Shown piece after piece: positions 4,914 through 57,205 of a stretch of DNA of 64,000 nucleotides. The position numbers and the translations under genes were made by a program. The stretch spans positions 1,588 to 65,587 of IMG/VR virus record IMGVR_UViG_3300047409_000364. The stretch is one strand, 5' to 3'. The notes below the pieces were generated by a model. That model saw nothing but the letters and a program-made list of their open reading frames with translations. It ran no database searches and was not told the origin of the DNA. The first letter of the stretch is position 1. Each line of letters begins with the position of its first letter. The stretch comes from a virus. Taxonomy: Duplodnaviria > Caudoviricetes.

Positions 4914-7900
4914 GTGAGTGCGCCCTTCACTAAAGCCACCTTCACCGTTGGCGAATTGTCTCCGTCTATGTACGGCAGAGTTGATTTGGCCAGGTACAGT
5001 GCCGCCGCGTCCACGGCACGAAATTGTTTCATCCGGTACGCTGGCGGGCTCTCCTCGCGGGCGGGCTCGCTGTTCGTTGGTTACTCCAAGCAGACCGGGC
5101 GGGCCTATCCTCCGCGGCTGCTGACCTTCCAGTTCAACCTCAATCAGGGTCTCTGTCTGGAGTTCGGCAACTTCTACATGCGGGTGATCCAGAACGGCGC
5201 CTTCGTGGTCGATCGCACGCTGAGCATCGTTGGGATCACCCAGGCTAACCCGGCCGTGATCACCGTGGGCCCGACCTCGGGCGGCAACACGGTGACAGCC
5301 ATCAATACGGCGGTCGTGCGCTCCTACGAGCCCGGCGAGCATGTCACCCTGGCCGGCGGCACTTTCTCGAGCCCTGCGGTGGTGGCAGTGACCAACACGC
5401 TCCTGCTGGCCCTGGAAGTAAATGACGGGGGCACCGGGGTCTATGACATCGCAGACACGATCTCTCTCACGGGAGGATCCCAGACGACGCCAGCCCAGCT
5501 TACCGTCACGCATACCCAGGTGACAGGGGCGTCGATCGCCAACGCGGGCGCGGGCGGAACGGACGGCGCGCAGGTTGTGACGGGGACGACCGGCACGGGC
5601 ACAAAGTTCACGGCTAACGTCACGATTGCTGGCGGCCTTATTACCTCGGTCGATTCCATTGCCACGGGCGGCGACTACACGGTCAATCCGACGGCGCCGG
5701 CGGCGGAGCCTGTAACGGGCGCGGGAGCGGGAGCCCAACTGGATCTCAGCATTGGCGTGCTTGCCTTCACGATCACCAATCCCGGCGTGTTCACGTCCAA
5801 CGGGCCGGGCACCTTCACCCAGAACACGACCTCTGGCTCCGGCCTGGCGGCGACCTTCAAGAACGCAATCTTCGGCATCAACGCCGCCACCTTCAGCGAT
5901 CCCGGCGTCTATACGGTATTCCCGACCAATCCCGTCGCCCAGGACACCACTGACGGCATGGGGCTGGGCGCCACTTTCACCTGCACCAGCGCGACGGTGG
6001 GGGCGATGGATACCGGCGACTGGATCGAAATCAGCGGCGTCGGCGGCATGACCGAGCTGAACGGCGGCACGTTCGTGGTGACCAAGCTCAGTTCCACGAC
6101 CTATTCCCTGGCCGACGTGTTTGGCAACAACATCGACAGCACGGCCTACACGGCGTTCACCTCGGGCGGCATTGCCGAGCGCATCTACACCCTCGAGACG
6201 ATCTACGACGAGGTCGACCTGGCCTTCCTGAAGATCACCCAGTCGGCCGACGTCATGTCGATCTGCCTGGTCAATCAGGACACCAACGTCGAATACATCC
6301 CGCAGGATCTCGCGCGCACGACCAACAGCGACTGGACGTTTGAGCCGGTGGTGACGACGGCGACGGTCGACGCGCCCACGGATCTCACGGGCGTGGCGAG
6401 CAGCAGCGGCTCGACCAACTATCAGTACGTCGTTACCTCGGTCGACCCCAAGAACGGCACCGAAAGCATCGCCTCAAACATCGCCAGCATTTCGAGTGCA
6501 GTAAACATCGCCGCCACAGCGGGCTCGATTCAGTTGAGCTGGACTCCGGTCGATGGAGTCAGTCAGTACAACGTCTACAAGGCCAACCCTGTTTTCGATT
6601 TCGCCATCCCGGCGGGCGTGGAATTTGGCTTTGCCGGCACGGCGTTTGGCACGCAGTTCGTCGACAGCAACATCGTCGCCGACTCCTCGCAGGTGCCGCC
6701 CAAGCACCAGAACCCGTTTGCTCGCGGCCAGATCATCGGGGCATCGCCGTCGATGACCGGCTCGGGCTACACGACCGCCACCGTCGCCATCACCACCTCG
6801 ACGGGGTCGGGTGCGATCATCCGCGCGATCGTCCAGAGCGGCGGCATAGCGGCCTACATCGTCGACAATCCGGGCGAGGATTACGCCACGACCGACACGG
6901 CAGCCGTTTCGGGCGACGGCACAGGGGCGACGTTGATCCTCAATGTCGGACCTGAGACCGGCACCTATCCGGCCGTGCCGACCTACTTCCAGGAGCGCCG
7001 CGGCTACGGTTTTACGCTCAACCAGCCCGACACCTACTTCTTCTCCCAGCCGGGCTCGTTCAAGGACTTCGATACCCGCATCCCGACCCTGGCCAGCGAC
7101 GCCATCACTGGCAACCCGTGGGCGGTGCAGGTGAACGGCATCCAGGCCATGCTCAACCGGCCGGGCGGCCTGGTGGTGTTCACTGGCCGCGAGGCATGGC
7201 AACTCACCGGCACCGGCGGCTCGAGCCTCAATCCCCAGCCCATCACGCCCTCGACCCAGCAGGCCCAACCGCAGGCCTTCAACGGCTGCCACAGCCACGT
7301 CCCGCCCGTCGGCATCGACAACGAGATCCTGTACGTCCAGGCCAAGGGCTCGATCGTCCGCGACCTGTCCTACAACTACTTCGCCAACGTCTATACCGGC
7401 TCGGACCTGACGCTGAATTCCTCGCACCTGTTCACCGGCTATCAGATCCAGGAATGGGGCTGGGCGGAGGAACCGTTCAAGATCCTGCCGGCGGTGCGCG
7501 ACGACGGTACGGCGCTCTGCCTGACCTTCGTGAAGCCGCAGGAGGTGGCGGGTTGGACGCGCTGGGATACCAACGGCAGCTTCGTGTCGACGACAGTGGT
7601 GACCGAAGTGCCGGTCGACGCCGTCTATCTCGCCACCCAGCGGCAGCCGGTCCAGGGCAGTGCCTACATGATCGAGCGGATGGACAACCGCATCTGGAAC
7701 TCGGCCGAGGAGGCGTGGTGCGTCGACTGCGGTTTGCGACTGGGCCAGCCGGAGCCGGCCGCCACCCTCAATGTCAGCTCGGCCACCGGCGCCGGAACCA
7801 TCCCCTCTATAACCGTCACCAGCGGCGGCACGGGCTACGGCAGCGCCACGACGGCGACGGTGGTGGACGATGACGGCGAGGGCCCGGGGAGCGGCTGTAC

Positions 7901-8834
7901 GGTCGCCCTGACGATCGTGGCAGGGGTGATCACCGCGGCCACCCCGACGGGGGGAACCGGTTACACCTACCCCCAGATCGTGGTCTACGACCCGTCGAAC
8001 AGCGGCAGCGGGGCAGTCCTGACGGCCGCCCTGCTCAATAGCGCGACCGCCGTGGCGACCGGGGGCACGCCCTTCACCTCGGGCAACGTGGGCGACGTGA
8101 TCCGCTCGGGCGGCGGCATAATGACCATCACCGCCTTCAACAGCACGACCAACGTCACGGTCAACATCACCTCGCCGATCGTGGCGATCACGGTCGACGC
8201 CGCGGGTAACCGCCGGCCGCTGCCGCAGACCTCGGGCAACTGGACGATGACGACCCCGGTCACCGAGGTCTCCGAGCTGATGCACCTGGCGGGCCTGACC
8301 GTCACCGGCACCTACGACGGCAAGGCCATCCCACCTACGGTCGTACCACCCTCCGGCGTGATCACCCTGCCGGCCGCCGCCAGCGCAGTGACCGTGGGTC
8401 TGGGCTTCGTAATGCAGGCCCAGAGCCCCTACTTCAGCGTGCAGGGTCAGTCGGTCGAGGGCCATCGCAAGAAGGTGGCCGACGTGGTCGTGCGGGTCGA
8501 GGCGTCGCTTGGCTTCACCGTCGGCACCAACCAGCCGGACGGGTCGACCTTCTCGCCGATCCAGATCGCTCCGGTGTGGGAGGACATGCAGCCCGTGGAG
8601 AAGGCGACGGCGAGTTTCAACCGCGCGCCCTACGGCTCCGACGTCGAGCCGCTATGGACAGGCGATTCGAAATTCATCCCGGTCATGTCGGGCTTCGGCG
8701 TGCCCGGTCAGGTTTGTGTCCAGCAGGCATTGCCGTTTCCACTCAACCTGCTTGCGTTCATCCCCGACATTCTTCCCGGTGATGTCCCCCAAGTACAAGA
8801 GCCCAAGAGCGCCCGGAGTGGCCAAAATCAATAG
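4914..8834 (+). CDS. Tail tubular protein B/nozzle (T7 gp12-like) with inserted domains
   Basis: FTVGELSPSMYGRVDLARY N-terminus; TQSADVM; YPAVPTYFQERR; QEVAGWTRWDTNG; YMIERM; QALPFPLNLLA C-terminus. Confidence 0.9.
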   Translation: MSAPFTKATFTVGELSPSMYGRVDLARYSAAASTARNCFIRYAGGLSSRAGSLFVGYSKQTGRAYPPRLLTFQFNLNQGLCLEFGNFYMRVIQNGAFVVDRTLSIVGITQANPAVITVGPTSGGNTVTAINTAVVRSYEPGEHVTLAGGTFSSPAVVAVTNTLLLALEVNDGGTGVYDIADTISLTGGSQTTPAQLTVTHTQVTGASIANAGAGGTDGAQVVTGTTGTGTKFTANVTIAGGLITSVDSIATGGDYTVNPTAPAAEPVTGAGAGAQLDLSIGVLAFTITNPGVFTSNGPGTFTQNTTSGSGLAATFKNAIFGINAATFSDPGVYTVFPTNPVAQDTTDGMGLGATFTCTSATVGAMDTGDWIEISGVGGMTELNGGTFVVTKLSSTTYSLADVFGNNIDSTAYTAFTSGGIAERIYTLETIYDEVDLAFLKITQSADVMSICLVNQDTNVEYIPQDLARTTNSDWTFEPVVTTATVDAPTDLTGVASSSGSTNYQYVVTSVDPKNGTESIASNIASISSAVNIAATAGSIQLSWTPVDGVSQYNVYKANPVFDFAIPAGVEFGFAGTAFGTQFVDSNIVADSSQVPPKHQNPFARGQIIGASPSMTGSGYTTATVAITTSTGSGAIIRAIVQSGGIAAYIVDNPGEDYATTDTAAVSGDGTGATLILNVGPETGTYPAVPTYFQERRGYGFTLNQPDTYFFSQPGSFKDFDTRIPTLASDAITGNPWAVQVNGIQAMLNRPGGLVVFTGREAWQLTGTGGSSLNPQPITPSTQQAQPQAFNGCHSHVPPVGIDNEILYVQAKGSIVRDLSYNYFANVYTGSDLTLNSSHLFTGYQIQEWGWAEEPFKILPAVRDDGTALCLTFVKPQEVAGWTRWDTNGSFVSTTVVTEVPVDAVYLATQRQPVQGSAYMIERMDNRIWNSAEEAWCVDCGLRLGQPEPAATLNVSSATGAGTIPSITVTSGGTGYGSATTATVVDDDGEGPGSGCTVALTIVAGVITAATPTGGTGYTYPQIVVYDPSNSGSGAVLTAALLNSATAVATGGTPFTSGNVGDVIRSGGGIMTITAFNSTTNVTVNITSPIVAITVDAAGNRRPLPQTSGNWTMTTPVTEVSELMHLAGLTVTGTYDGKAIPPTVVPPSGVITLPAAASAVTVGLGFVMQAQSPYFSVQGQSVEGHRKKVADVVVRVEASLGFTVGTNQPDGSTFSPIQIAPVWEDMQPVEKATASFNRAPYGSDVEPLWTGDSKFIPVMSGFGVPGQVCVQQALPFPLNLLAFIPDILPGDVPQVQEPKSARSGQNQ

Positions 8835-43571: not shown

Positions 43572-43587
43572 TCCATCATTGCGCCTT

Positions 43588-44088
43588 ATGGCAGCTACAG
43601 CACTCGGCAATCGCAAGCGCCACATCAAGCACGAGCCGATGCTTCCCGTAGCCCAGCGCACCGGGCCAGGGCGCAAGAGCCTATATAAACCCGAGTATTG
43701 CGACATTGCCGTAACACTCGGAAAACAAGGCAAGTCCGTCTCCCAAATAGCGTTAATCCTCAACGTTGACCGCGCCAGCATTAATAGGTGGGCGGCTGAC
43801 AATGAAGAATTCGCGCTTGCCCTATCGCGCGCGAAGACATTTGAGCAAGCGTGGTGGGAGAAGAAAGCCCAGACATCACTGGGGCGTAAGCATTTCCAAG
43901 CGCAGCTATGGCGTCATTCTGTGGCTGGTCGCTTTGATGATTACCGCGAGCAACGCGACGCTGGTGCGAGCAATGCCTTTGACCTAGGCGCATTCGTTGG
44001 CGCGCTAGCCCAGGCGCTACAGGCTCCGGGCGACAAGGCAAAGCCGACAAACGTACTAGATGTGGTGCCAGACAAGCCGAAAGGCTAA
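43588..44088 (+). CDS. terS: Terminase small subunit
   Basis: GRKSLYKPEYC...GKSVSQIALILNVDRASINRWA.DNEEF..AL...QAWWE. Confidence 0.8.
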   Translation: MAATALGNRKRHIKHEPMLPVAQRTGPGRKSLYKPEYCDIAVTLGKQGKSVSQIALILNVDRASINRWAADNEEFALALSRAKTFEQAWWEKKAQTSLGRKHFQAQLWRHSVAGRFDDYREQRDAGASNAFDLGAFVGALAQALQAPGDKAKPTNVLDVVPDKPKG

Positions 44089-44375: not shown

Positions 44376-44840
44376 ATGGCGGGTGTGAGGCTGTGTCCGC
44401 GGTGCGGGAAGAATTTGGCGCTGGTTGGTGTGGCGCATAACTGTGTTTCGCGGGCGGGAGGTCGGGATGGTGGATCGGTGGGACGTTCCGTCTCTGGCGC
44501 GGGTTCTCGAGATGGCGATCGTGGAGGGCCATCGGGCGTCGCGAGTAGAGGGGTTCGGCCGAACGCCGATCGACCGGCTTCATCTCGCGGTACTGCTGGC
44601 GGCGGCAAGGACGGTGCTCGAGGGGATGGTTCCTCCGGAACTCACGCCGGAGCAGGCAAAGTTCAAGGCGGTTCTGGAGGAGCTAAGAAACCCGGTCGAC
44701 CGAAGGGGCCGGACAGGCGGGCTGTCCTCGTCGAGCTGGAGTTGGGACTGATGGCGAAGCTGGACGCTTGGGCGTCGGCGCGGGGTCACAGGCGGTCCGC
44801 GGCGATTCGGGTGCTGTTGGAGGAGGGTCTGAGGAAATGA
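44376..44840 (+). CDS. Zn-ribbon plus ribbon-helix-helix DNA-binding protein
   Basis: CPRCGKNL.LVG.AHNC N-terminus; GRPK...LDAWA...RSAAIRVLLEEGL C-terminus. Confidence 0.6.
   Translation: MAGVRLCPRCGKNLALVGVAHNCVSRAGGRDGGSVGRSVSGAGSRDGDRGGPSGVASRGVRPNADRPASSRGTAGGGKDGARGDGSSGTHAGAGKVQGGSGGAKKPGRPKGPDRRAVLVELELGLMAKLDAWASARGHRRSAAIRVLLEEGLRK
44467..44751 (+). CDS. Nested +1-frame protein (94 aa)
   Basis: GGAGG RBS 5 nt before ATG; helical protein-like composition. Confidence 0.45.
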   Translation: MVDRWDVPSLARVLEMAIVEGHRASRVEGFGRTPIDRLHLAVLLAAARTVLEGMVPPELTPEQAKFKAVLEELRNPVDRRGRTGGLSSSSWSWD

Positions 44841-47228: not shown

Positions 47229-47444
47229 ATGCACCCCTCGACCTATGAATATCTGAAGCCGACCGACGCGCAACTCGAGCAGATGGCAAAGGTTCGCGCT
47301 GCGGCGAAGGCCTACAACGACATCCTCGACGCCGAACTGCCCGACGGTCCCGACAAGACATTCGTGATCCGGGCCCATCGGTCCAACGCGATGTGGGCCA
47401 ACGTGGCGATCACACGGCTGCCCAACGGCACCCCGCGGGAGTAA
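47229..47444 (+). CDS. Acb2/Tad1-like anti-defence sponge candidate
   Basis: YEYLKPTDAQ...VRAAAK...LPDGPDK...AMWANVAITR helical-hairpin pattern; AGGAG RBS. Confidence 0.6.
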   Translation: MHPSTYEYLKPTDAQLEQMAKVRAAAKAYNDILDAELPDGPDKTFVIRAHRSNAMWANVAITRLPNGTPRE

Positions 47445-47523: not shown

Positions 47524-48199
47524 ATGGCGAAGGTAGCCGACCCTGAATCCGCCCGCGTCGTCAGCCTGACCGACGGGGCCAAGAACATCGGCTATAACTT
47601 GGCCCTTGCTGATCTCGCCGGTTGTGTCGCCGAGCTGATGCGCCGGCGCCGCATCGCGGGCATTACCAGCGAGAACTACTCCGCCGCCGTCAACGACATG
47701 CTCGCCATCATCCAGGCCCTCATGGCGCAGCACCGCAAGAAGTAGTAGGTTGCGCCATGCAAAGGTGGCTTACCCGGTGCCGGAGGCCTTCGCTCCGCGA
47801 ACTGGTCACGCAACTCCTACAAAAGGTGGATAAAATGGCGACAAAAGAAGAGCTCGACGCCGTGGCGACCCGTATTGCTGCCGACGTCAGCTCCGCAGTC
47901 GACGAAATCAAGGCGCTGATTGCCGGCGGCACCGGCAGCATCAACCCGGCCGACCTCGACCCGATCCTCGCCAAGCTGAGCGCCGCCGCGGACGCACTCG
48001 AGGCCGCGCCCAAGGCGCCGTGACCGTCGACCAGACAACGCGGTACCTCGATATTCTCGAGCGCCAGACCAGGGTGCTCGAGACCATCGCGGAGTATCTG
48101 GCCAAACTGGCTAACCCCCAAGTCGTGCTGCCTGAGCCGATCCCGCCACCCCACCCACCCCGCCAGGCCGTCGCCCCCGCCCGCAAGGTCAGCGCATGA
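47524..48199 (+). other. Small helical/coiled-coil ORFs (47524-47745, 47757-48023, 48020-48199)
   Basis: Contiguous coupled ORFs before TerL. Confidence 0.5.
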
Positions 48200-48432
48200 T
48201 CGACACCTCTCGCCGTAGCTTCCTGTTCGGCGCCGGTGTTGCCTTCGTGGCGGCGCCGGCGATCGTGCGTGTGGCCGCCCATCTCATGCCGGTCAGCACG
48301 AACGCGCTGGCGCCATATCCATATTCAGTGGACGACCTGGCGTTTCTGGAGGGCATGGGCCAGACCATCGAGCAGACGATCTGGTATGGCAATCCAGACG
48401 TCCTGCCGGTCCGCTACAGCGGCTTCGCATGA
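48196..48432 (+). CDS. Twin-arginine-signal-like peptide fused to a major capsid protein fragment
   Basis: SRRSFL leader; DDLAFLEGMGQTIEQTIWYGN versus MCP EDVAFIEGMGQTIEETCWYGN; ATGA-coupled at both ends. Confidence 0.75.
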   Translation: MIDTSRRSFLFGAGVAFVAAPAIVRVAAHLMPVSTNALAPYPYSVDDLAFLEGMGQTIEQTIWYGNPDVLPVRYSGFA

Positions 48433-50984
48433 GCCGCGTCGACAAGCGCCTGGTCGAGGCCGGCGCCCGCTGGCGCCAGAACCCCGCCGCCATGGTGCGC
48501 GAGCTGTTCGGTGTCGAGCCCGACCTGTGGCAGATCGACGTGCTGGAATGCTTCCCGACCTCTCCGCTGCTTGCCATGAAGGCCTGCAAGGGCCCTGGGA
48601 AGCTGCAACCGAAAAGCATGATGTTGGACACGCCTGATGGTCCGCGTCGTTGGGGTGACCTGAGAGTGGGGGATCGACTATTCGCCGAAGACGGTTCTCC
48701 AACTCGGATCAAGGCTGTCTACGACAACGGTGTAGTGCCGCTATTCCGAGTGATATTCGACGACGGGTCTTCAACGCTCGCAGGCGCAGAACATCTGTGG
48801 AAGGTGCGCGGTCATCGGGAGCGCGAGCGCCGGCGTGTGCGGGGCAAGACCACTGAAGAATGGATAGTGATAAATACGGCGGAGATCATCCAGCGCGGCG
48901 TGCGCAGCAGCAACGGCAAGTGGCAGCAGCGTCAATTTGAAATCCCGCGGCACGGGCCAGCACAAATCGCGCATGCGGAGCTTCCGCTGGATCCGTATGT
49001 ACTAGGCGTATGGCTTGGAGACGGATCGAAGAACAGCGGGCAATTCACCGGCGTAGACTCGGACGTCGATGCTGAAATCGTCCGCCGTGGTTACGAGATC
49101 GGGAATAAACGAGATGGCAAGACAGCAACTATTTACGGGATTTCTGGAGCCCTTCGGTCTCTAGGAGTGCTGATTCTGGGAAGTCACGAGAGATACGTTC
49201 CACAGGCCTTTAAATATTCATCCATCCAGCAGCGCACCGACTTGTTGATGGGCCTCATGGATACCGATGGGTGCGTGGCGACGGATGGCCATTGTGAATT
49301 CGGCAGTACCTCTCGCGCCTTGGTGGATGACGTGGCGTGGCTCGTTCGGTCGCTGGGCGGCTGCGCAACCGTCAAAGCCAAGGTGAAGCGAGGGCGCTAC
49401 AAGGATTCCGCTGGCGATATTGTCGAGTGTCGAGACTTCTATCGCCTGACCGTGACTGTTCCGTTCGCGCCATTCAAGGCGTCGCGCAAGAGCGTTCGCT
49501 GGAAGCCCAAAGACAACAAATCATCTGACCGCTACATGACGCGGTACATCGACAGAATCGAGCCCGCTGCCGCGGAAGATTCCATGTGTGTCGAGATCGA
49601 CCATACATCCCGATGCTATCTAGCCAACGATTTCATCGTGACGCACAATACGACCGTGCTGGCGTGGCTGGCGTGGAACTTCCTGCTGACCAGGCACAAT
49701 CCCAACATCGCCGCGACCTCGATCTCGGGCGATAACCTCAAGGACGGTCTCCTCAAGGAGATGTCCAAGTGGTACGCCAAGTGCCCGCTCCTGCAGGCCG
49801 CCTTCACCATCACCAATACCCGCATCTTCGCCAAGCAGGCCGAGAAGAACTGGTGGCTCTCCTTCCGCACCTGGCCCAAGAGCGGCGACACCCAGTCCCA
49901 GGCCGATACCCTGGCCGGCCTGCACGAAGACAACGTCATGTTCATCCTCGACGAAGCCGGCGGCATCCCGCCTGCCGTCCTGGTCACCGCCGAAGCCGCC
50001 CTGTCGTCCTGCGTCGAGGGCCACGTCCTGATGGCCGGCAACCCGACGTCCCTCGACGGCGCCCTCTACGCTGCCGAAAAGGAAAGCACCGAGCGCGGCG
50101 GCAAGTGGCGCACCTTCTCCATCACCGGCGACCCCGAGGATCCCAAGCGCGCGCCCCGCGTGAAAGAGGAATGGGCGCGCGACCAGATCCGCAAGTACGG
50201 ACGGGATAATCCGTGGGTGCTGGTCAACGTGTTCGGGCAATTCCCGCCGACCTCGCTCAACACGCTTATCAGCGAGGACGAAGTCCGCGAGGCCATGCGC
50301 CGCATGTACCGCGAATGGGATCTCGGCCATCAACCCAAGATCATCGGTGTCGATGTGGCCCGCCAGGGCGACGACGCCTCCGTCCTCGCCCGCCGCCGCG
50401 GCCTGCAGATGTACCCGTTCAAGAAATACCGCAACCTCACCGGCATCGAGGGCGCCTCGATCGCCAACCGGCTGTGGAACGAGTTCGGCGCCGACGCCAT
50501 GTTCGTCGATGGCACCGGCGGCTTTGGCTACACCTGGATCGACCAGCTTTCTACGCTGGGCCGCACTGCGATCCCCGTGGGCTTCGCCGACGAAGCCCGC
50601 GACTCGGTGCGCTACTACAACCGCCGCGCCGAGATGGCCCTGGAATTCGTCGAGGCGATCAAGAATGGCCTGGCCCTTCCCCCGGAAGGAACCGAAGGCA
50701 TGCACGAGCTCAAGGAAGCCCTCATCCACACGACCTACACTTTCAAGGGCGATCGGCTGCTGCTCGAGCCCAAGGAAGATGTAAAATCCAAGATCGGCTT
50801 CTCGCCCGACGAGATGGATGCCGCCATGCTGACCTATGCCGAGCCGGTCACCGCGGCCCGCAAGCAACCCGGCGCCGTCAACTACTCCGCCGTCTCCACC
50901 TACAACCCTCATGCCGAGATGGATAGGATCATGGGGACCGGCTACAATGTGGTCGGAAATTACAACCCGTTCGGGGGCAACTGA
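48429..50984 (+). CDS. terL: Terminase large subunit with intein
   Basis: Walker A ACKGPGK|T, Walker B FILDEAGG, GNPT, IGVDVARQGDD, SPDEMDA. Confidence 0.95.
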   Translation: MSRVDKRLVEAGARWRQNPAAMVRELFGVEPDLWQIDVLECFPTSPLLAMKACKGPGKLQPKSMMLDTPDGPRRWGDLRVGDRLFAEDGSPTRIKAVYDNGVVPLFRVIFDDGSSTLAGAEHLWKVRGHRERERRRVRGKTTEEWIVINTAEIIQRGVRSSNGKWQQRQFEIPRHGPAQIAHAELPLDPYVLGVWLGDGSKNSGQFTGVDSDVDAEIVRRGYEIGNKRDGKTATIYGISGALRSLGVLILGSHERYVPQAFKYSSIQQRTDLLMGLMDTDGCVATDGHCEFGSTSRALVDDVAWLVRSLGGCATVKAKVKRGRYKDSAGDIVECRDFYRLTVTVPFAPFKASRKSVRWKPKDNKSSDRYMTRYIDRIEPAAAEDSMCVEIDHTSRCYLANDFIVTHNTTVLAWLAWNFLLTRHNPNIAATSISGDNLKDGLLKEMSKWYAKCPLLQAAFTITNTRIFAKQAEKNWWLSFRTWPKSGDTQSQADTLAGLHEDNVMFILDEAGGIPPAVLVTAEAALSSCVEGHVLMAGNPTSLDGALYAAEKESTERGGKWRTFSITGDPEDPKRAPRVKEEWARDQIRKYGRDNPWVLVNVFGQFPPTSLNTLISEDEVREAMRRMYREWDLGHQPKIIGVDVARQGDDASVLARRRGLQMYPFKKYRNLTGIEGASIANRLWNEFGADAMFVDGTGGFGYTWIDQLSTLGRTAIPVGFADEARDSVRYYNRRAEMALEFVEAIKNGLALPPEGTEGMHELKEALIHTTYTFKGDRLLLEPKEDVKSKIGFSPDEMDAAMLTYAEPVTAARKQPGAVNYSAVSTYNPHAEMDRIMGTGYNVVGNYNPFGGN
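48603..49649 (+). mobile_element. Class 3-type intein with LAGLIDADG endonuclease (349 aa)
   Basis: Splits Walker A; EHLW block B, SMCVEI block F, VTHN|T end; LGVWLGDG and LMGLMDTDG motifs. Confidence 0.9.
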
Positions 50985-50987
50985 ACC

Positions 50988-51221
50988 ATGGGACTATTTG
51001 GCGGGGCTCCTCCAGCCGCGGCGGCTGCACCTCCGCCCCCACCTCCGCCGCCGCCGCCTCCATCGCCGCCGACCATGGCCAGCGCCAACGTCCAGGGATC
51101 CGGCGCGGCCCAGGCCGCCCGCGTCGCTGCCGCAGGCGCCTTTGCCGACACGCTGCGCTCCTCGCCCCAGGGCGTCACCGGCACCACCAAGTCCGCCGGC
51201 AAGCAGCTTCTAGGCTCTTGA
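50988..51221 (+). CDS. Pro-rich small virion protein, paralog 1
   Basis: MGLFGG, poly-Pro, TLRSSPQGV...KQLLGS; typical pre-portal gene. Confidence 0.75.
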   Translation: MGLFGGAPPAAAAAPPPPPPPPPPPSPPTMASANVQGSGAAQAARVAAAGAFADTLRSSPQGVTGTTKSAGKQLLGS

Positions 51222-51466
51222 CCGTGGGGCTGCTCCAGGGCGCGATCCAGGCGGCGCAAGCCAACGGCTCGTGGACCGGCCCGCCGCCTCCACCGCCGCC
51301 GCCCGCCTCTCCCCCGACGATGGCCGGCGCCAACGTCCAAGGCGCCGGTGGCGCGCAATCGGCCCGTGCCGCCGCGGCCGGGGCATACGCCGATACCCTG
51401 CGCTCCTCCGCGCAAGGCGTGCTCGGCTCGACCACCACCGCCGGCAAACAGTTGCTAGGAGCCTGA
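51218..51466 (+). CDS. Pro-rich small virion protein, paralog 2
   Basis: Near copy: SPPTMAGANVQG...DTLRSSAQGV...KQLLGA. Confidence 0.7.
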   Translation: MTVGLLQGAIQAAQANGSWTGPPPPPPPPASPPTMAGANVQGAGGAQSARAAAAGAYADTLRSSAQGVLGSTTTAGKQLLGA

Positions 51467-51467
51467 C

Positions 51468-53288
51468 GTGCCTCTTGATAGCGGACCCGGCGACTATACC
51501 CAGCAGGGCGTGACGCTTCTGGCGTCACAGCCCGTTGTCCCGACCCGCACCTCGCCGATCGTCGACAACGAGGACTGGCAGGTCGTCTACAACCACCTCG
51601 AGCGCCGTCTTGCGGCACTGCGCGCCTGGCGCTGGACCCGCTGGGCCGTCTGGCAGGATCTCGGCGCCTACTTCCTGCCGCGGCGCGTGAAGGCCTTTAT
51701 CACCCCGAACAACTACGCGCGTGGACGCTGGCTCAACAACAACATCATCGACTCGACCGGCGTGCAGGCCATGAACACCTGCGCCTCCGGCATGTGGAGC
51801 GGGCTGACCAATCCCGCCCGGCCGTGGATGGAGTTCGCCCCGGCAATCGAGATGCCCAATCTCGACGAGGAAAGCAGGGCTTGGCTGGTCGACCTCAAGC
51901 AGAAGGTCCACGCCGTCCTCGCAAGCTCGAATTTCTACCAGACCACCGCGCAGATGTTCCAGGACACGACCGTCTTTGGCCAGTCGCCGATGCTCGCCTT
52001 CGAAGACAAGGAAGACATCGTCCGCTTCTACCTGCCCTGCGCGGGCGAGTATTTCATCGCCGTCGGCTCGCGCCTCTCCGTCGACACGCTCTACACCGAA
52101 GCCACCTGGACCGTGGCCCAGCTCGTCGAGATGTTCTCGCTCGCCAACTGCCCGGAGAACGTCCAGAAAAACTGGGAAGAAGGGATGTACGACTTCGAAT
52201 ACATCCTGTGCATGGCCATCGAGCCCAACTTCGCCGTGCGCGGCCGCGGCAAGAAGAAGGTCACGGTGATCTCCGGCCGCTTCCCCTATCGCCAAGTCTA
52301 TTGGCTGCGCGGTCAGAAGAATGCCCGCCCCCTCCAGGTGAAAGGCTTCCTCGACAAGCCGTTTATGACGTCGCGGTGGTGGGTCGTCGGCAACGACGCC
52401 TACGCCCGCGGCCCCTGCGAGGATGCGCTCGGCGACAACAAGCAGATCCAGACCGAGACCATGCGCAAGGCCGAGTTCCTGGAAAAGGGCGTGCGCCCGC
52501 CGATGCTGGCCGACCCGGAGCTGAAGAACGAGCCGGCCTCGATCATGCCCGGCATGGTCACCTTCGTTAATACCCAGAACGGCAAGCTCGGCTTCAAGCC
52601 CGCGTTCGAGGTCGGCGCCCAGTGGCTCCAGTACATGACCGCCGACATCAAGGAGGTCCAGGCCCGCATCAAGGAAGCCCTCTACGTCCCGCAGTTCATG
52701 GCGATCACCCAGATGCAGGGCGTCCAGCCCCGCAACGAGCTTGAGCTCACGAAACGTGATCTGGAACGTTTGCAGGTGCTCGGGCCGGTGATCGAGAATT
52801 TCGAGAACGAGGTCGCCCCCATCATCCAGCGCGTCGTGTCGATCATGCAGCGCCGCGGCCTGATCAAGCCGATCCCCGACGGCCTCGCCCGCGTGCCGCT
52901 CAAGATCAACTTCATGTCGCTGATGCGGCTCGCCCAGCGCGCCGCCGAGTCGATCGCCATGAAGGACGGCTTCCAGACCCTCGGCGTGCTCTCGGTCGCC
53001 GCCAAGAACGCCGGAGTGCCCGACCCGCTCCGCGTCATCAACCTCGACAAGTCGGCCAAGCACTATCTCTTCCTCAACAACTACCCGATGGACTGCATCT
53101 TCTCCGACGACGAGGTGAAGCAGCACGACCAGATTCGCCAGCAGGAAGCCGAGCGCGCCAAGCAGGAAGCCGCCGCCTCGCAAATGACCAAGCCCGCAGT
53201 CGACGCCGCCAAGGTGCTCGCCAATACCCAGGTCGGCGGTGGCTCCATGCTGAATTCGATGCTGGGCGGCGGCACGGCGCCGCAATGA
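51468..53288 (+). CDS. Portal/head-tail connector (BPP-1 Bbp21-like)
   Basis: IIDSTG...ASGMWSGLTNPARPW, YARGP...ALGD.KQIQ, LGPVIE. Confidence 0.95.
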   Translation: MPLDSGPGDYTQQGVTLLASQPVVPTRTSPIVDNEDWQVVYNHLERRLAALRAWRWTRWAVWQDLGAYFLPRRVKAFITPNNYARGRWLNNNIIDSTGVQAMNTCASGMWSGLTNPARPWMEFAPAIEMPNLDEESRAWLVDLKQKVHAVLASSNFYQTTAQMFQDTTVFGQSPMLAFEDKEDIVRFYLPCAGEYFIAVGSRLSVDTLYTEATWTVAQLVEMFSLANCPENVQKNWEEGMYDFEYILCMAIEPNFAVRGRGKKKVTVISGRFPYRQVYWLRGQKNARPLQVKGFLDKPFMTSRWWVVGNDAYARGPCEDALGDNKQIQTETMRKAEFLEKGVRPPMLADPELKNEPASIMPGMVTFVNTQNGKLGFKPAFEVGAQWLQYMTADIKEVQARIKEALYVPQFMAITQMQGVQPRNELELTKRDLERLQVLGPVIENFENEVAPIIQRVVSIMQRRGLIKPIPDGLARVPLKINFMSLMRLAQRAAESIAMKDGFQTLGVLSVAAKNAGVPDPLRVINLDKSAKHYLFLNNYPMDCIFSDDEVKQHDQIRQQEAERAKQEAAASQMTKPAVDAAKVLANTQVGGGSMLNSMLGGGTAPQ

Positions 53289-53467: not shown

Positions 53468-53553
53468 TCCCGATTTCCCGATTAGCCGTCCCGATTTATG
53501 TGTCTGATTATGCTGGTTATTATCAGATAATCGGGGAAATCGGGAAATCGGGA
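53468..53553. repeat. Mirrored TCCCGATT array (3 direct, 3 inverted) around an AT-rich core
   Basis: TCCCGATT at 53468, 53476, 53489; AATCGGG at 53529, 53538, 53546. Confidence 0.85.
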
Positions 53554-53560
53554 TTCCTGA

Positions 53561-53809
53561 TTATCGCAGTCTGGGCCGCGATATGCCGCCCGCTCCGACC
53601 AGGCAGTCGACCAGATCCCAGATGAGATAAAGCACCAAAATCAGCATGACCGCGTACAGGACGATGTTGATCACCTGGCCCAGCAGCGTCCCTGGCCCGC
53701 CAAAATTGGCCAGCACGGCGGGCAGCACTACCTTGATGATGGCGTAGAGAGCGCCAATGACGACCAGCCAGATACAAAGCTGAAAGAAAAAGCCGACTGA
53801 AAAGCACAT
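53561..53809 (-). CDS. Small 2-TM membrane protein
   Basis: Two long hydrophobic helices; GGAGG RBS. Confidence 0.7.
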   Translation of the reverse strand: MCFSVGFFFQLCIWLVVIGALYAIIKVVLPAVLANFGGPGTLLGQVINIVLYAVMLILVLYLIWDLVDCLVGAGGISRPRLR

Positions 53810-53860
53810 GGCGCGTACCTCCGGTTGGCGAGGTAACGCAGAAAGGCGCGGAAAGGTCCG

Positions 53861-54094
53861 CTACTCGAATTGGGGGCTGCGCCGCCGCCCGCCGGTCTGG
53901 TCATAAAGCGGACTTGGCCTATTCAGGAATTCCGCTGTAGGGCCCGACGGCGTTCCGTTCCCGGTCCAATGTTTCTTCCAAGGAGAGGTGGCGTCCCGGA
54001 CTTTTGCTTCCTCGTGATTCCACGGCTTCTTGACCGGCGCGGGCTGCGGCGCTGGCCTGAATAGGCGATGCCAGAGACGGCGGATAAAGTTCAT
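53861..54094 (-). CDS. Hypothetical protein
   Basis: MNFIRRLWHRLF amphipathic start, coupled to the upstream gene. Confidence 0.5.
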   Translation of the reverse strand: MNFIRRLWHRLFRPAPQPAPVKKPWNHEEAKVRDATSPWKKHWTGNGTPSGPTAEFLNRPSPLYDQTGGRRRSPQFE

Positions 54095-54303
54095 TCGACC
54101 CTCACTGCGCGCTTGCGGCGCCACTCGTCCAGTTCGGCCTTGCTGTAAATCACGGTGCGCCAGCCATAGCGCGTGTAGGGCGGGCCCTGACCGGCGTTTT
54201 GCTTCATTGCCATGTTGGCGAGCCGGTTGTGGTCGATCGGACAGCCTTGGCTTCGCAGGTACGCCGCGGCCTGTTTGCGATTCAGGAAATCGTCAGCAGC
54301 CAT
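54091..54303 (-). CDS. Excisionase/AlpA-like HTH protein
   Basis: FLNRKQAAAYL...LANMA...GPPYTRYG.RTVIYSKAELDEW. Confidence 0.8.
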   Translation of the reverse strand: MAADDFLNRKQAAAYLRSQGCPIDHNRLANMAMKQNAGQGPPYTRYGWRTVIYSKAELDEWRRKRAVRVE

Positions 54304-54405
54304 CGCCCCACTCTCATTAAGACTAAGCAATCATAGTCGTGCCTCTCCAATAATTCCACCGCATCTTGTGTCATGGGGACGCGCACCGTCATGGTGTCCC
54401 CATCA

Positions 54406-54834
54406 ATGGCCACCCTGACTGAAGCCGAGATTTTCGATCGCCTGCGCACGAGCCTACGAGCGGTGATCCAAGGCTGTGAGGATCTGGCGCGCTGGCCGGC
54501 GCAAGGCCCGACCTACATGAAGCTGCGCGAGGAATTGGCCCTACTCGAGGGCGCTGCGCGACAGGCCGGCTTCGCCCGCGGCGACGCCCGCTGGAACCGC
54601 TTCGGCTGGGAGATGGCGGCGTTTCAGCAGCGCATCGGCGATGCCATCCGCTGCCACAGCCCGCGCAAGGTGTTCCTCGCCATGGCGGAGATGGTGCGCA
54701 AGGCGCTCTACGAGGCCGACAAGCTCAAGGTCGCCAAGACTGGCCGGCGCGGTCCGATCCTCCCGATCCCCAAGCCCGGCCCGCATCGTGAGACGCGCCC
54801 GGTCTACGTCCGGCCCTCGGGCCTGATCGTCTGA
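54406..54834 (+). CDS. Hypothetical protein of the head operon
   Basis: Coupled to the next gene by TGATG. Confidence 0.65.
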   Translation: MATLTEAEIFDRLRTSLRAVIQGCEDLARWPAQGPTYMKLREELALLEGAARQAGFARGDARWNRFGWEMAAFQQRIGDAIRCHSPRKVFLAMAEMVRKALYEADKLKVAKTGRRGPILPIPKPGPHRETRPVYVRPSGLIV

Positions 54835-55223
54835 TGGCCGGCGATGATGACGACAAACCCGTCGACCAGCCCGAAGTCCTCCCCGACCAGCAAAGCGCTG
54901 TCGATCCCAAGGAAGCTGAGCGTCGCGAAAGCAAAAAGCAGCTCGCCGAGCGCCGGCGCCGCGAGTGGCTTGCCGAACAGCTCCGAAATCCGATCGCCCG
55001 CGAGTTTCTGTGGGGCATTCTCTGGTCGGCCGGCACCTTCGAAGAGAAGTACGGCTTTGGCCCCAACGGCGAGCCCAACGACCGGGCGAGCGAATACTTC
55101 CTCGGACAGAAAGACCTTGGGCTTCGGCTCTATCACTCGTGGTCGGTACTCGACCGTGCCGGCGTTCTTTCTCTGCTCGATGAGTACCACCCGACCTTCC
55201 CCAAGCCCCGGAAAGGTAAGTGA
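54834..55223 (+). CDS. Bbp19-like protein
   Basis: LRNPIAREFLWGIL..AGTF...FLGQKDLGLRL; position between portal and scaffold. Confidence 0.7.
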   Translation: MAGDDDDKPVDQPEVLPDQQSAVDPKEAERRESKKQLAERRRREWLAEQLRNPIAREFLWGILWSAGTFEEKYGFGPNGEPNDRASEYFLGQKDLGLRLYHSWSVLDRAGVLSLLDEYHPTFPKPRKGK

Positions 55224-56146
55224 TGGCTGATCCGGTTGAGCCAAAGGAAACCCCGGTCGCCAGCGAAGCTCCGCCTGTTGTGACGGAGGCGCCGCCGGTT
55301 GCCGCGTCAGAGTCCGCTCCGATCCCTTCGGCGGACCCGGCACCTACAGCCGACTCCTCCCCAGGTGGCGAGGCCCCGGCGGCGCAGTCTCAACCGGAGC
55401 GCACGCCCAGCCTGCTCGAGGCCGCGATCGCGCCAGGCACCGAAGAGCCGAAGGTAGAAACGCCGCCCGCGGAAAAGGTTCCCGAGGCGAAACCCGCCGA
55501 GGAAAAGGCCGCCGAGCCGCCGAAGGCAGAGGCCAAGCCGGAGGAAAAGCCGGCTGAGACCAAGGCGGAAGAAAAGCCGCCAGAGCCCACGAAGCCCGAG
55601 CCCATCGAGTACCTGTTCAAGGCGCCCGAGACCCTGCAGATGGACGACGCCGTGCGCGGCGAGTTCACCACGGCGCTCGACGAGTTCCGCGCCGACCCGC
55701 AGGCCGGTTCCCAGAAGCTCCTCGACATGCACGTCGCCCAGCTCGTCAAGCACGACGAGCACCTGCGCAACGAGCAATACCGGATTTTCAACGAGACCAA
55801 GAAGGGCTGGCGCGACCAGGTCCAGGCCGACGAGATGCTGGGCGGCCCCGGTCATCGCACCGCGATGGGCCAGGTCGCCATGGTCCGCAATATGTTCGTG
55901 TCCGACCATCCGCAGGGCTCCAAGCAGTGGAAGGCCGATCTGCAGGAATTCAACAACGCCCTGGACGCTACCGGCGCCGGCGACCACCCCGCAATCCTGC
56001 GGGTGCTCTATCGCATGGCCCGCTTCGTCAATGAGCCGTCGATCCCGACCACCGTCGATCCCAAGCCCGCGCCGGGTGCGGGTAAGCGCAATGGCGCCGA
56101 TACGCTGTACGACAACGACCGATCCCCGCGCGGGAATTCTCAGTAA
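55220..56146 (+). CDS. Capsid scaffolding protein
   Basis: P/E/A/K-rich N-half, LDATGAGDHPAILRVLYR, C-terminal ADTLYDNDRSP; directly upstream of the MCP. Confidence 0.85.
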   Translation: MMADPVEPKETPVASEAPPVVTEAPPVAASESAPIPSADPAPTADSSPGGEAPAAQSQPERTPSLLEAAIAPGTEEPKVETPPAEKVPEAKPAEEKAAEPPKAEAKPEEKPAETKAEEKPPEPTKPEPIEYLFKAPETLQMDDAVRGEFTTALDEFRADPQAGSQKLLDMHVAQLVKHDEHLRNEQYRIFNETKKGWRDQVQADEMLGGPGHRTAMGQVAMVRNMFVSDHPQGSKQWKADLQEFNNALDATGAGDHPAILRVLYRMARFVNEPSIPTTVDPKPAPGAGKRNGADTLYDNDRSPRGNSQ

Positions 56147-56158
56147 AGGAGAGATAAA

Positions 56159-57205
56159 TTGGCTACAGGTTCTTGGATCACGCTTGCTGATCTTACCTCC
56201 CGCATGGATAGCGCGGACAAGCAGGCCTACATCGCCGAAATGCTGTCGCAGAGCATTTCGCTCTACCAGGACATGCCCTTCAAGGAAGGCTCGGAGATCT
56301 TCGGACACGAAGGCGTGTTCCGCTCCTCCATCCCGGCCGGATCGTGGCGCTACCTCAACGGCGGCACCGCCTACGGCAAGTCGACGACCGGCAAGTTCCG
56401 TATCGGCATGGGCTCGCTGACGGGCTACAGCCAGATCGACAAGCTCTTGGCCAAGGCCTCGGGCAACGTGCCGATGTTCCGCAAGAACGAGGACGTCGCC
56501 TTCATCGAGGGCATGGGCCAGACCATCGAAGAGACCTGCTGGTACGGCAACACCGCGACCAACCCGGCCTCCTTCATGGGCCTGTCGACGTTCTACAACA
56601 CGACCTCACAGACCACCGCGCAGAATGCGCAGAACGTGATCGACGCCGGCGGCACCGGCTCCGACAACGCTTCGATCTGGCTGGTGTGCTGGGGCGATCG
56701 CACGATCTACGGCACCTACCCGCGCGGCTCCAAGGCGGGCCTTGTGTCGGAGGATCTGGCTGACACGCGCGCCGCCTACGACAACCTCGGCAATCCCTAC
56801 GAGGCGTGGACGACCTACTTCGAACAGAACATGGGCATCTTCCCGGAAGACTGGCGCCAGGTCGGCCGTATCGCCAACCTCGACGTCACCTCGGCTGGCC
56901 TCGCCGGCTCCAACGCCTACGACCTGTTCCTCGGCCTCTCGAGCCTGGTCATGCTGCCGCCGATGCTGACCTCCGAGTCGTCCGGCATCACCTCGACCGA
57001 CGCGCCGAACGATCCGGCGCCGGGCATCCGGCCGGTCATGTACACCAACCGCACCATCCGCTTCTGGATGGACGCCCAGGGCATGCGCGATCGCAACGTC
57101 CTGATCTCGATCAACGAGGCGCCCGGCAAGGTCCAGGACCGCTTCCGCGGAATCCCGGTCAAGGTCTCGGACAGACTTTTGACAACTGAAGATGCTGTAG
57201 CTTAG
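56159..57205 (+). CDS. Major capsid protein (BPP-1 Bbp17-like)
   Basis: TLADL, IAEMLSQ, EDVAFIEGMGQ, DAGGTGSDNASIWLVCWG, DWRQVGRIANLD, FRGIPV; TTG start with AAGGAG RBS. Confidence 0.95.
   Translation: MATGSWITLADLTSRMDSADKQAYIAEMLSQSISLYQDMPFKEGSEIFGHEGVFRSSIPAGSWRYLNGGTAYGKSTTGKFRIGMGSLTGYSQIDKLLAKASGNVPMFRKNEDVAFIEGMGQTIEETCWYGNTATNPASFMGLSTFYNTTSQTTAQNAQNVIDAGGTGSDNASIWLVCWGDRTIYGTYPRGSKAGLVSEDLADTRAAYDNLGNPYEAWTTYFEQNMGIFPEDWRQVGRIANLDVTSAGLAGSNAYDLFLGLSSLVMLPPMLTSESSGITSTDAPNDPAPGIRPVMYTNRTIRFWMDAQGMRDRNVLISINEAPGKVQDRFRGIPVKVSDRLLTTEDAVA

Follow-up and report, generated by a model that had tools for sequence, protein, structure and literature searches.

Short stretches of virion proteins are read by bacterial hosts: Lit, CapRel, Avs and some CBASS/Pycsar systems are known to be set off by capsid, portal and terminase proteins, and, as in the case of the Gol peptide of T4 gp23, which is recognized by Lit, or of capsid sensing by CapRel, it is a short conserved stretch of the major capsid protein (MCP) that a host factor reads. 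Here we describe a small gene of a tailed soil phage (Duplodnaviria; Caudoviricetes), in which such a stretch is joined to a predicted signal of the twin-arginine translocation (Tat) pathway. The gene encodes 78 amino acids and occupies positions 48196-48432 of the plus strand in a 64-kb stretch (positions 1,588 to 65,587, hereafter the window) of the IMG/VR record IMGVR_UViG_3300047409_000364, a 65,587-bp virus graded complete by CheckV. Comparison with its homologues demonstrates that fusions of host-type, Tat-like leaders to conserved pieces of virion proteins are recurrent and are maintained under selection; what the fused proteins do can be proposed with much less certainty.

None of the closest described systems has the same organization. 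The Gol peptide sits in the full capsid protein and triggers the defence, whereas the stretch considered here is placed in a separate gene with an export leader. Tat signal peptides (PF10518, TIGR01409, including those of small Tat substrates and uncleaved anchors) have in common with the phage leader the S-R-R-x-F-L motif, the Gly/Ala-rich hydrophobic stretch and the proline followed by I-V-R-A at the end; however, a fragment of only about 50 residues from a cytoplasmic virion protein serves here as the passenger, the phage family adds an L-M-P-V junction to the cellular type of leader, and the leader from the window scores below the curated cutoffs. The internal proteins of T4 are alike in combining a conserved short N-terminal address with fast-changing passengers and in being encoded by accessory genes, but theirs is an address for the prohead core, cleaved by the prohead protease, while here the N-terminal part is a membrane/export signal common to cellular proteins.

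The mini-gene starts with ATG at 48196 and stops with TGA at 48430-48432. Its start overlaps, within ATGA at 48196-48199, the stop of a 59-aa open reading frame (ORF; 48020-48199, plus strand) with no family match, and its stop overlaps, within ATGA at 48429-48432, the start of the gene of the large terminase subunit (TerL), so that by its layout the mini-gene is translationally coupled to both neighbours. The coordinates, length, frame and coupling are all as first noted in the sequence-only reading, i.e., the preliminary interpretation made from the letters of the window and its ORFs. The GC content at codon positions 1/2/3 (0.63/0.48/0.78) is close to that of TerL (0.61/0.46/0.78), as expected of a coding frame, and the identical hexamer GCATGA borders the gene at both ends. 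We conclude that the mini-gene is a real accessory gene of the late operon. The encoded protein can be divided into four parts. Residues 1-28 (48196-48279) form a signal-peptide-like leader with R6-R7 (48211-48216), a hydrophobic segment 8-24, R25 and V26-A27-A28; residues 29-33, H-L-M-P-V (48280-48294), are a family-specific junction after the signal, recognized by columns conserved across the family; residues 34-45 (48295-48330) are a linker, variable in the alignments and non-helical in the AlphaFold 2 (AF2) model; and residues 46-78 (48331-48429) are the cargo, assigned by BLASTP, Pfam, a hidden Markov model (HMM) of the MCP and the modelled helix to the spine helix of the MCP, of which it takes the C-terminal two-thirds, and to the loop behind that helix. 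The AF2 model as a whole has a predicted local confidence (pLDDT) of 69, with a leader helix at residues 4-30 and a tail helix at residues 45-64. In the ESM Atlas, the structural neighbours of the mini-protein were generic helical membrane fragments (model pLDDT 0.46), giving no usable feature match.

The tail matches the MCP of the phage, which is of the epsilon15 gp7/BPP-1 type with the HK97 fold and is encoded in the window at 56159-57205, plus strand (PF20911, E 2e-91; PDB 3J4U, E 1.7e-59; PDB 3J40, E 9e-51). Residues 46-78 of the mini-protein are identical in 18 of 33 positions to MCP residues 111-143 (56489-56587, plus strand; E 4e-12 in a single BLASTP comparison), and the MCP-family HMM matches the mini-gene at E 8.1e-12; by these scores the likeness of the tail and the MCP is beyond chance at the protein level, and the fusion of a Tat-like leader to an MCP segment, proposed in the sequence-only reading, stands. 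The match to PF20911 (GP7) has an E-value of 2e-5 and a score of 24.1 bits, which is below the 27-bit cutoff, and covers profile positions 95-127 of 313; this sub-cutoff score and partial cover indicate a fragment rather than a capsid protein. In the AF2 model of the MCP (m59ddfdfc75da, pLDDT 78), one helix spans residues 104-129, and the segment 111-143 overlaps that helix and includes the loop after it. In the model, the tail therefore lacks the N-terminal third of the spine helix and comprises the rest of it together with the loop; this is the region of the HK97 fold where it had been expected to map.

The exact 23-nucleotide identity between positions 48349-48371 and 56507-56529, the latter within the homologous MCP segment, was also verified. 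However, given identical residues and the codon bias of the phage, all seven codons would agree by chance with a probability of about 0.05, and for this reason we regard the identity as weak evidence of recent copying. When 121 MCPs of the family are ordered by their identity to the tail, that of the phage itself comes 98th (18/33, the best being 22/33), and the tail follows the family consensus at sites where the own MCP departs from it; by eye, of the positions in the MCP segment 111-143 the tail retains 9 of the 10 that are invariant and 6 of the 9 that are nearly so. Thus, of the proposal that the fragment had been copied from the phage's own MCP, the origin from an MCP of this type holds, while the low rank of the own MCP speaks against a recent copy of it. 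Prediction of a complex between tail residues 36-78 and the MCP gave a score of 0.00 (mark 0.32), which has no bearing either way.

As to the leader, it contains a twin-arginine motif (S5-R6-R7-S8-F9-L10), followed by a hydrophobic stretch at residues 10-24 (Kyte-Doolittle mean of 2.21 over 15 residues), R25 and a possible signal-peptidase site at V26-A27-A28. When the profile of the mini-protein family (see below) was compared with longer proteins from a collection of 5.8 billion sequences, it matched, at E 5e-4 to 5e-3, the N-termini of cellular proteins: PhoD (PF09423), SBP_bac_5 (PF00496), TctC (PF03401), NMT1-type (nitrate/sulfonate-type substrate-binding) proteins and carbonic anhydrase. 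Their leaders all end in ...AAPA[IVL][VL]RA, beyond which the sequences diverge, and the L-M-P-V junction is missing from them; one of the matches was assigned to Acetobacteraceae. Since these are periplasmic proteins, the match of their N-termini identifies the phage leader as a Tat-type signal, and we describe it as an ordinary, albeit predicted, Tat signal of alphaproteobacterial-type periplasmic proteins, extended by the family-specific junction. The leader is not confined to mini-proteins, as it is carried by P0281 (284 aa) and P0272 (269 aa), in which it is followed by about 230-250 residues of no identified type; P0272 retains LMPV.

The mini-protein belongs to a family which is defined by the leader. 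A word-based search returned four other small proteins with the same N-terminal 35 residues, three of them with unrelated tails. A profile built from these five proteins, including the ORF from the window, was scored against 1.84 billion representative sequences and matched at least 599 protein clusters at E<=1e-3; the ORF from the window, being among the seeds, obtained 114 bits in this search. The 150 members listed are 33-152 aa long, and in all of them except P0044 the match begins within the first 13 residues. PF10518 (TAT_signal) matches 14 of these 150 members at E<=0.01. Further leader loci were found in viral (29) and metagenome (about 75) contigs, which are phage-like and have 35-65% GC. 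The consensus of the leader over 232 members is R-R-x-F-L-x-G-x-G-A-x-L-x-A-A-P-A-I-V-R-[AV]-A-S-L-M-P-V-[KRS], with the proline conserved in 100% and R, A, I, V and R in 92-98% of the members; in the family alignment R7, P21 and M31 are invariant and R6 is present in at least 90%, and in the junction columns M, P and V reach 83, 77 and 68% of 232/234 members. On this evidence, the family is a very large set of predicted phage mini-proteins, in which one leader is combined with interchangeable hypervariable tails. Within the window, the leader HMM recognizes the mini-gene as the sole copy (63.1 bits, E 4.4e-18), while one viral contig (L006) contains three leader genes (5615-6378 and 7686-8048), two of which are adjacent and overlapping, and a single protein, P0042, has the leader in tandem duplicate. 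In species-representative bacterial genomes, a narrow leader pattern was found at one locus (L036), in a Hyphomicrobiales metagenome-assembled genome. A tblastn search of the mini-gene against 50,697 GenBank phage records gave six matches, all to residues 46-78, five of them in proteins annotated as hypothetical and one in an annotated capsid protein, and with P0051, a second member of the family, no match was found in these records at E<=1; the low-complexity filter of BLAST may mask the leader, and therefore the absence of the family from cultured phages does not follow from these searches.

In a recognizable minority of cases the tail can be traced, by similarity, to a short conserved stretch of a capsid, portal or terminase protein. 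In a tblastn comparison of the tails of 151 proteins, that of the window's mini-gene among them, with the window (E<1e-4), matches fell, apart from those to the own tail, into three segments of the MCP and one of the portal, the latter being matched by the tails of three members at E 1e-6 to 3e-15; shuffled tails, used as a control, reached E 1e-3 at best. A gp7-MCP HMM, built from 54 members of the MCP family, matches 19 of 234 distinct mini-proteins, and the MCP pieces are limited to HMM positions 32-80, 107-152 and 283-340, with none in 153-282. Mapped on the AF2 model, the three regions correspond to the first strand of the E-loop, the spine helix (104-129) and its loop, and the strand and helices of the C-terminal part. 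Pfam and PHROG tallies of the tails add portal, other major-head families and terminase to the list of sources. Two loci, L035 and L025, have tails that repeat the N-terminal approximately 55 residues encoded by the P22-type coat gene next downstream, with 70 and 51% identity, respectively, and some tails are chimeric: that of P0002 combines an MCP piece with a portal piece, and that of P0076 contains two MCP pieces in swapped order. The explanation that the fragments simply mark the most conserved stretch of the MCP was rejected as insufficient: the segment 111-143 ranks 12th of 316, yet the comparably conserved segment 155-220 is never used. It should be kept in mind that conserved stretches are the easiest to recognize, which introduces a detection bias among the assigned tails.

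Selection was estimated from two sets of closely related members in other parts of the family. In the leader, synonymous differences in the first set are frequent (proportion pS of about 0.3) and nonsynonymous ones nearly absent (pN 0-0.02), and the ratio of nonsynonymous to synonymous rates (dN/dS) over both sets is about 0.05-0.23; for the tail it is 0.08-0.36. These low values in both parts indicate that the family is translated and constrained in the leader as well as in the tail. A DNA or RNA element as the cause of the leader conservation was rejected on the same grounds, because with pS of about 0.3 and amino-acid changes near zero, selection acts on the protein. The mini-gene is therefore not a one-off scar: rather than being unique to one genome and evolving neutrally, which was the outcome that would have discredited the sequence-only reading, the design recurs in hundreds of clusters as a family defined by its leader and is under purifying selection in homologues. 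The closest homologues of the mini-protein with the same type of tail are P0002, P0006 and P0041.

Four contigs whose MCPs are 51-63% identical to that of the window each carry a leader gene, but of another kind and in another place: in G001 and L003 the leader is joined to a C-terminal piece of the MCP, the gene lying between portal and scaffold in the opposite orientation; in G003, to an E-loop piece; and in G004, to a tail with no assigned source. These contigs were found via the leader pattern and are thus a biased sample. In related phages, which the sequence-only reading had suggested searching for the fusion, leader-MCP fusions thus recur, with other MCP pieces and at other genome sites. 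Since the relatives differ in the presence, kind and place of the gene, we consider the mini-gene to be an accessory cassette of patchy distribution.

The reading that we tentatively favour, with a probability of roughly one in three, is that the mini-protein is directed to Tat, mimics a virion epitope and serves as a counter-defence decoy. The leader would bring the mini-protein to the Tat translocase or the inner membrane, where the tail would mimic a conserved surface of the virion protein and bind a host factor recognizing newly made capsid protein, such as a defence sensor or a protease; the bound factor would be sequestered or removed. The decoy would be expressed together with the real capsid genes. 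This reading gains support from the recurrence of virion-protein tails, from the repeated fusions in relatives and from the nearby gene with an Acb2/Tad1 hairpin domain (see below). In a more specific, decidedly unlikely variant proposed by analogy, the tail would bind an immune sensor or protease for capsid, portal or terminase, and the leader would drag it out of the cytoplasm or jam it at the membrane. Tat, unlike Sec, carries folded complexes, and hitchhiker export, known for example from hydrogenase and DMSO reductase subunits, moves a partner that lacks a signal in complex with a subunit that has one; by pure analogy, this would be a reason for equipping a binding module with a Tat leader and not a Sec leader. 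Such an eviction would explain the Tat-type leader, the tails taken from proteins sensed by immunity, and the chimeric tails of several pieces.

A number of observations weigh against the decoy. The main difficulty is topology, as export takes the tail out of the cytoplasm: the capsid sensors Lit and CapRel act in the cytoplasm, whereas the tail of a cleaved Tat substrate would sit in the periplasm. The eviction variant would be a way around this, as the bound host protein would leave together with the tail. The Tat assignment of the mini-gene itself is below the curated threshold (12.9 bits on TIGR01409, cutoff 16.7), and PF10518 does not match it at E<=0.01. We know of no binding partner or sensor for the mini-protein, and there is no recurring partner gene near the family genes, since the neighbour clusters (68 downstream and 81 upstream) have no more than 3-4 members, the contigs of which are apparently related or nearly identical. 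The source is not recognized for most tails (215 of 234 with respect to this MCP type, about 130 of 150 by Pfam/PHROG), so that the mimic reading may fit only a part of the family. The dN/dS values come from homologues elsewhere in the family and not from the mini-gene itself. The gene is dispensable and patchy in relatives, and no orthologue of the fusion was found at the same locus: none of the 15 unbiased loci that were found through the MCP has a leader gene by the pattern and HMM, and in 4 of 4 relatives the region upstream of TerL contains other small genes instead. Finally, in soil run X3 a low-depth contig (depth 2.1) appears to join position 48192 to 48426, the two sides of the joint having 7 letters in common, which fits the GCATGA at both ends of the gene; it is a weak hint that a variant without the mini-gene, or with something else at the site, may exist in a relative.

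This apparent joint, together with the identical GCATGA at the two ends, the lack of an orthologue at the site in relatives and the fact that the fragment is not closest to the own MCP, are what one would expect if the gene were a non-functional by-product in this genome, i.e., a cassette that landed between coupled genes by microhomology and is carried neutrally. We nevertheless regard this as unlikely, since the frame is intact and has a coding-type composition, the tail keeps most of the invariant positions of the MCP segment, the start of TerL now relies on the overlap with the mini-gene stop, and the family as a whole is under purifying selection. A doubtful but serious alternative is that only the leader is functional: together with LMPV it would act on the membrane or the Tat translocase, either timing lysis in the manner of an antiholin or a signal-arrest-release protein, or jamming host export, the tail being a filler originating from partial duplication of nearby genes, in phages frequently structural ones. 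This would account for the much better conservation of the leader compared to the tails, for the majority of tails having no recognizable source and for the partial duplications of the very next gene in L035 and L025. In size and layout the mini-proteins are also like small secreted phage lysis regulators, for example, the T4 antiholin RI, which has about 100 residues, a weakly hydrophobic N-terminal export/anchor segment and a small C-terminal part, but, unlike the mini-protein, no capsid-derived one. Fillers, however, should not be under purifying selection, as the tails are in both homologue sets; nor should the MCP tails come from three regions only, avoiding the comparably conserved 153-282, or the same MCP motif be retained by diverged members with different leader subtypes.

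The choice of the regions could point to assembly instead, as the tails are taken from the P-domain, E-loop and spine helix but not from the A-domain, the family genes are often located within head and packaging modules (those of their neighbours that can be identified are for the most part terminase, portal, scaffold and coat genes), and the mini-gene is co-translated with TerL. The tail would in this case bind capsid, scaffold or portal, and either poison the heads of co-infecting relatives or tether or nucleate assembly at the membrane. Such a modulator seems rather unlikely to us: an N-in signal or anchor would remove the tail from the cytoplasm, in which the heads are assembled, the phage's own capsid protein would be struck too by a dominant-negative fragment, and the gene is dispensable in relatives. 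Highly improbable is the release of the mature tail to the periplasm or the medium as a signal sensed by other cells or phages, similarly to arbitrium; though a small pre-peptide whose export leader is followed by a variable mature part could suit this role, no receptor gene is linked, arbitrium-like systems have Sec leaders and much shorter mature peptides, and the use of capsid and portal pieces as signals would be left unexplained.

In full-text searches judged by titles and the openings of abstracts, we did not find Tat-leader fusions to capsid fragments described in phages. The present analysis newly connects the leader with cellular Tat proteins and shows that the MCP pieces are confined to three structural regions, that the fusions differ among close relatives and that the fragment is nearer to the family consensus than to the own MCP. 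If the tails are mimics, the family would represent a widespread and so far undescribed way in which phages handle host factors reading capsid, portal and terminase surfaces; the tails would then mark the short virion-protein stretches that matter to the host, and each member could serve as a bait for unknown capsid-sensing defence proteins. If only the leader is active, at least 599 clusters with a host-type Tat signal would mean an unrecognized interaction of phages with the Tat pathway. The mini-gene of the window is one more member of this family, with a clear spine-helix assignment and a counter-defence neighbour.

This neighbour is a 71-aa Acb2/Tad1 hairpin-domain gene (47229-47444, plus strand), a candidate cyclic-nucleotide sponge (PF24729, E 8e-8, 32.8 bits with a cutoff of 27; phrog_1454, E 2.1e-10), located 750 nt upstream of the mini-gene. 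Both genes belong to the accessory island of small genes between the genes of the small terminase subunit (TerS; 43579-44088; phrog_309, 3.6e-12) and TerL, so that the position ascribed to the mini-gene at the outset is correct. The hairpin gene is widespread, as its stretch is covered by numerous distinct soil contigs of 80-95% likeness. By the set of head and packaging genes, inferred from family searches of the window proteins, the genome is podovirus-like. TerL (48429-50984, plus strand), upstream of whose start no clear Shine-Dalgarno sequence is seen by eye, is interrupted by a LAGLIDADG intein at 48603-49649, in the ATPase motif (PF14528, E 2.5e-5; PF05204, E 1.3e-4). The intein is absent from relatives L039 and L041 and present at the same place in L040/L043 and L130; contigs of runs X3 and X4 skip the spot exactly (1047 and 1053 bases, respectively). 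Downstream follow a T7-type portal gene (51468-53288) and a scaffold-like gene (55220-56146). The gap between TerL and portal is filled with two ORFs (50988-51221, 77 aa, and 51218-51466, 82 aa), which by eye are tandem paralogues; both have a long run of prolines, and the Ala/Gly-rich tails that come after it are alike. Between portal and scaffold there is a minus-strand island (53500-54450) with a membrane-type small ORF (53561-53809) and two more ORFs; the matching interval in G001 and L003 contains their leader-MCP-fragment gene. Finally, in the gene at 44376-44840, the C-terminal 50 residues match the phage transcriptional repressor family phrog_4738 (E 2e-5).

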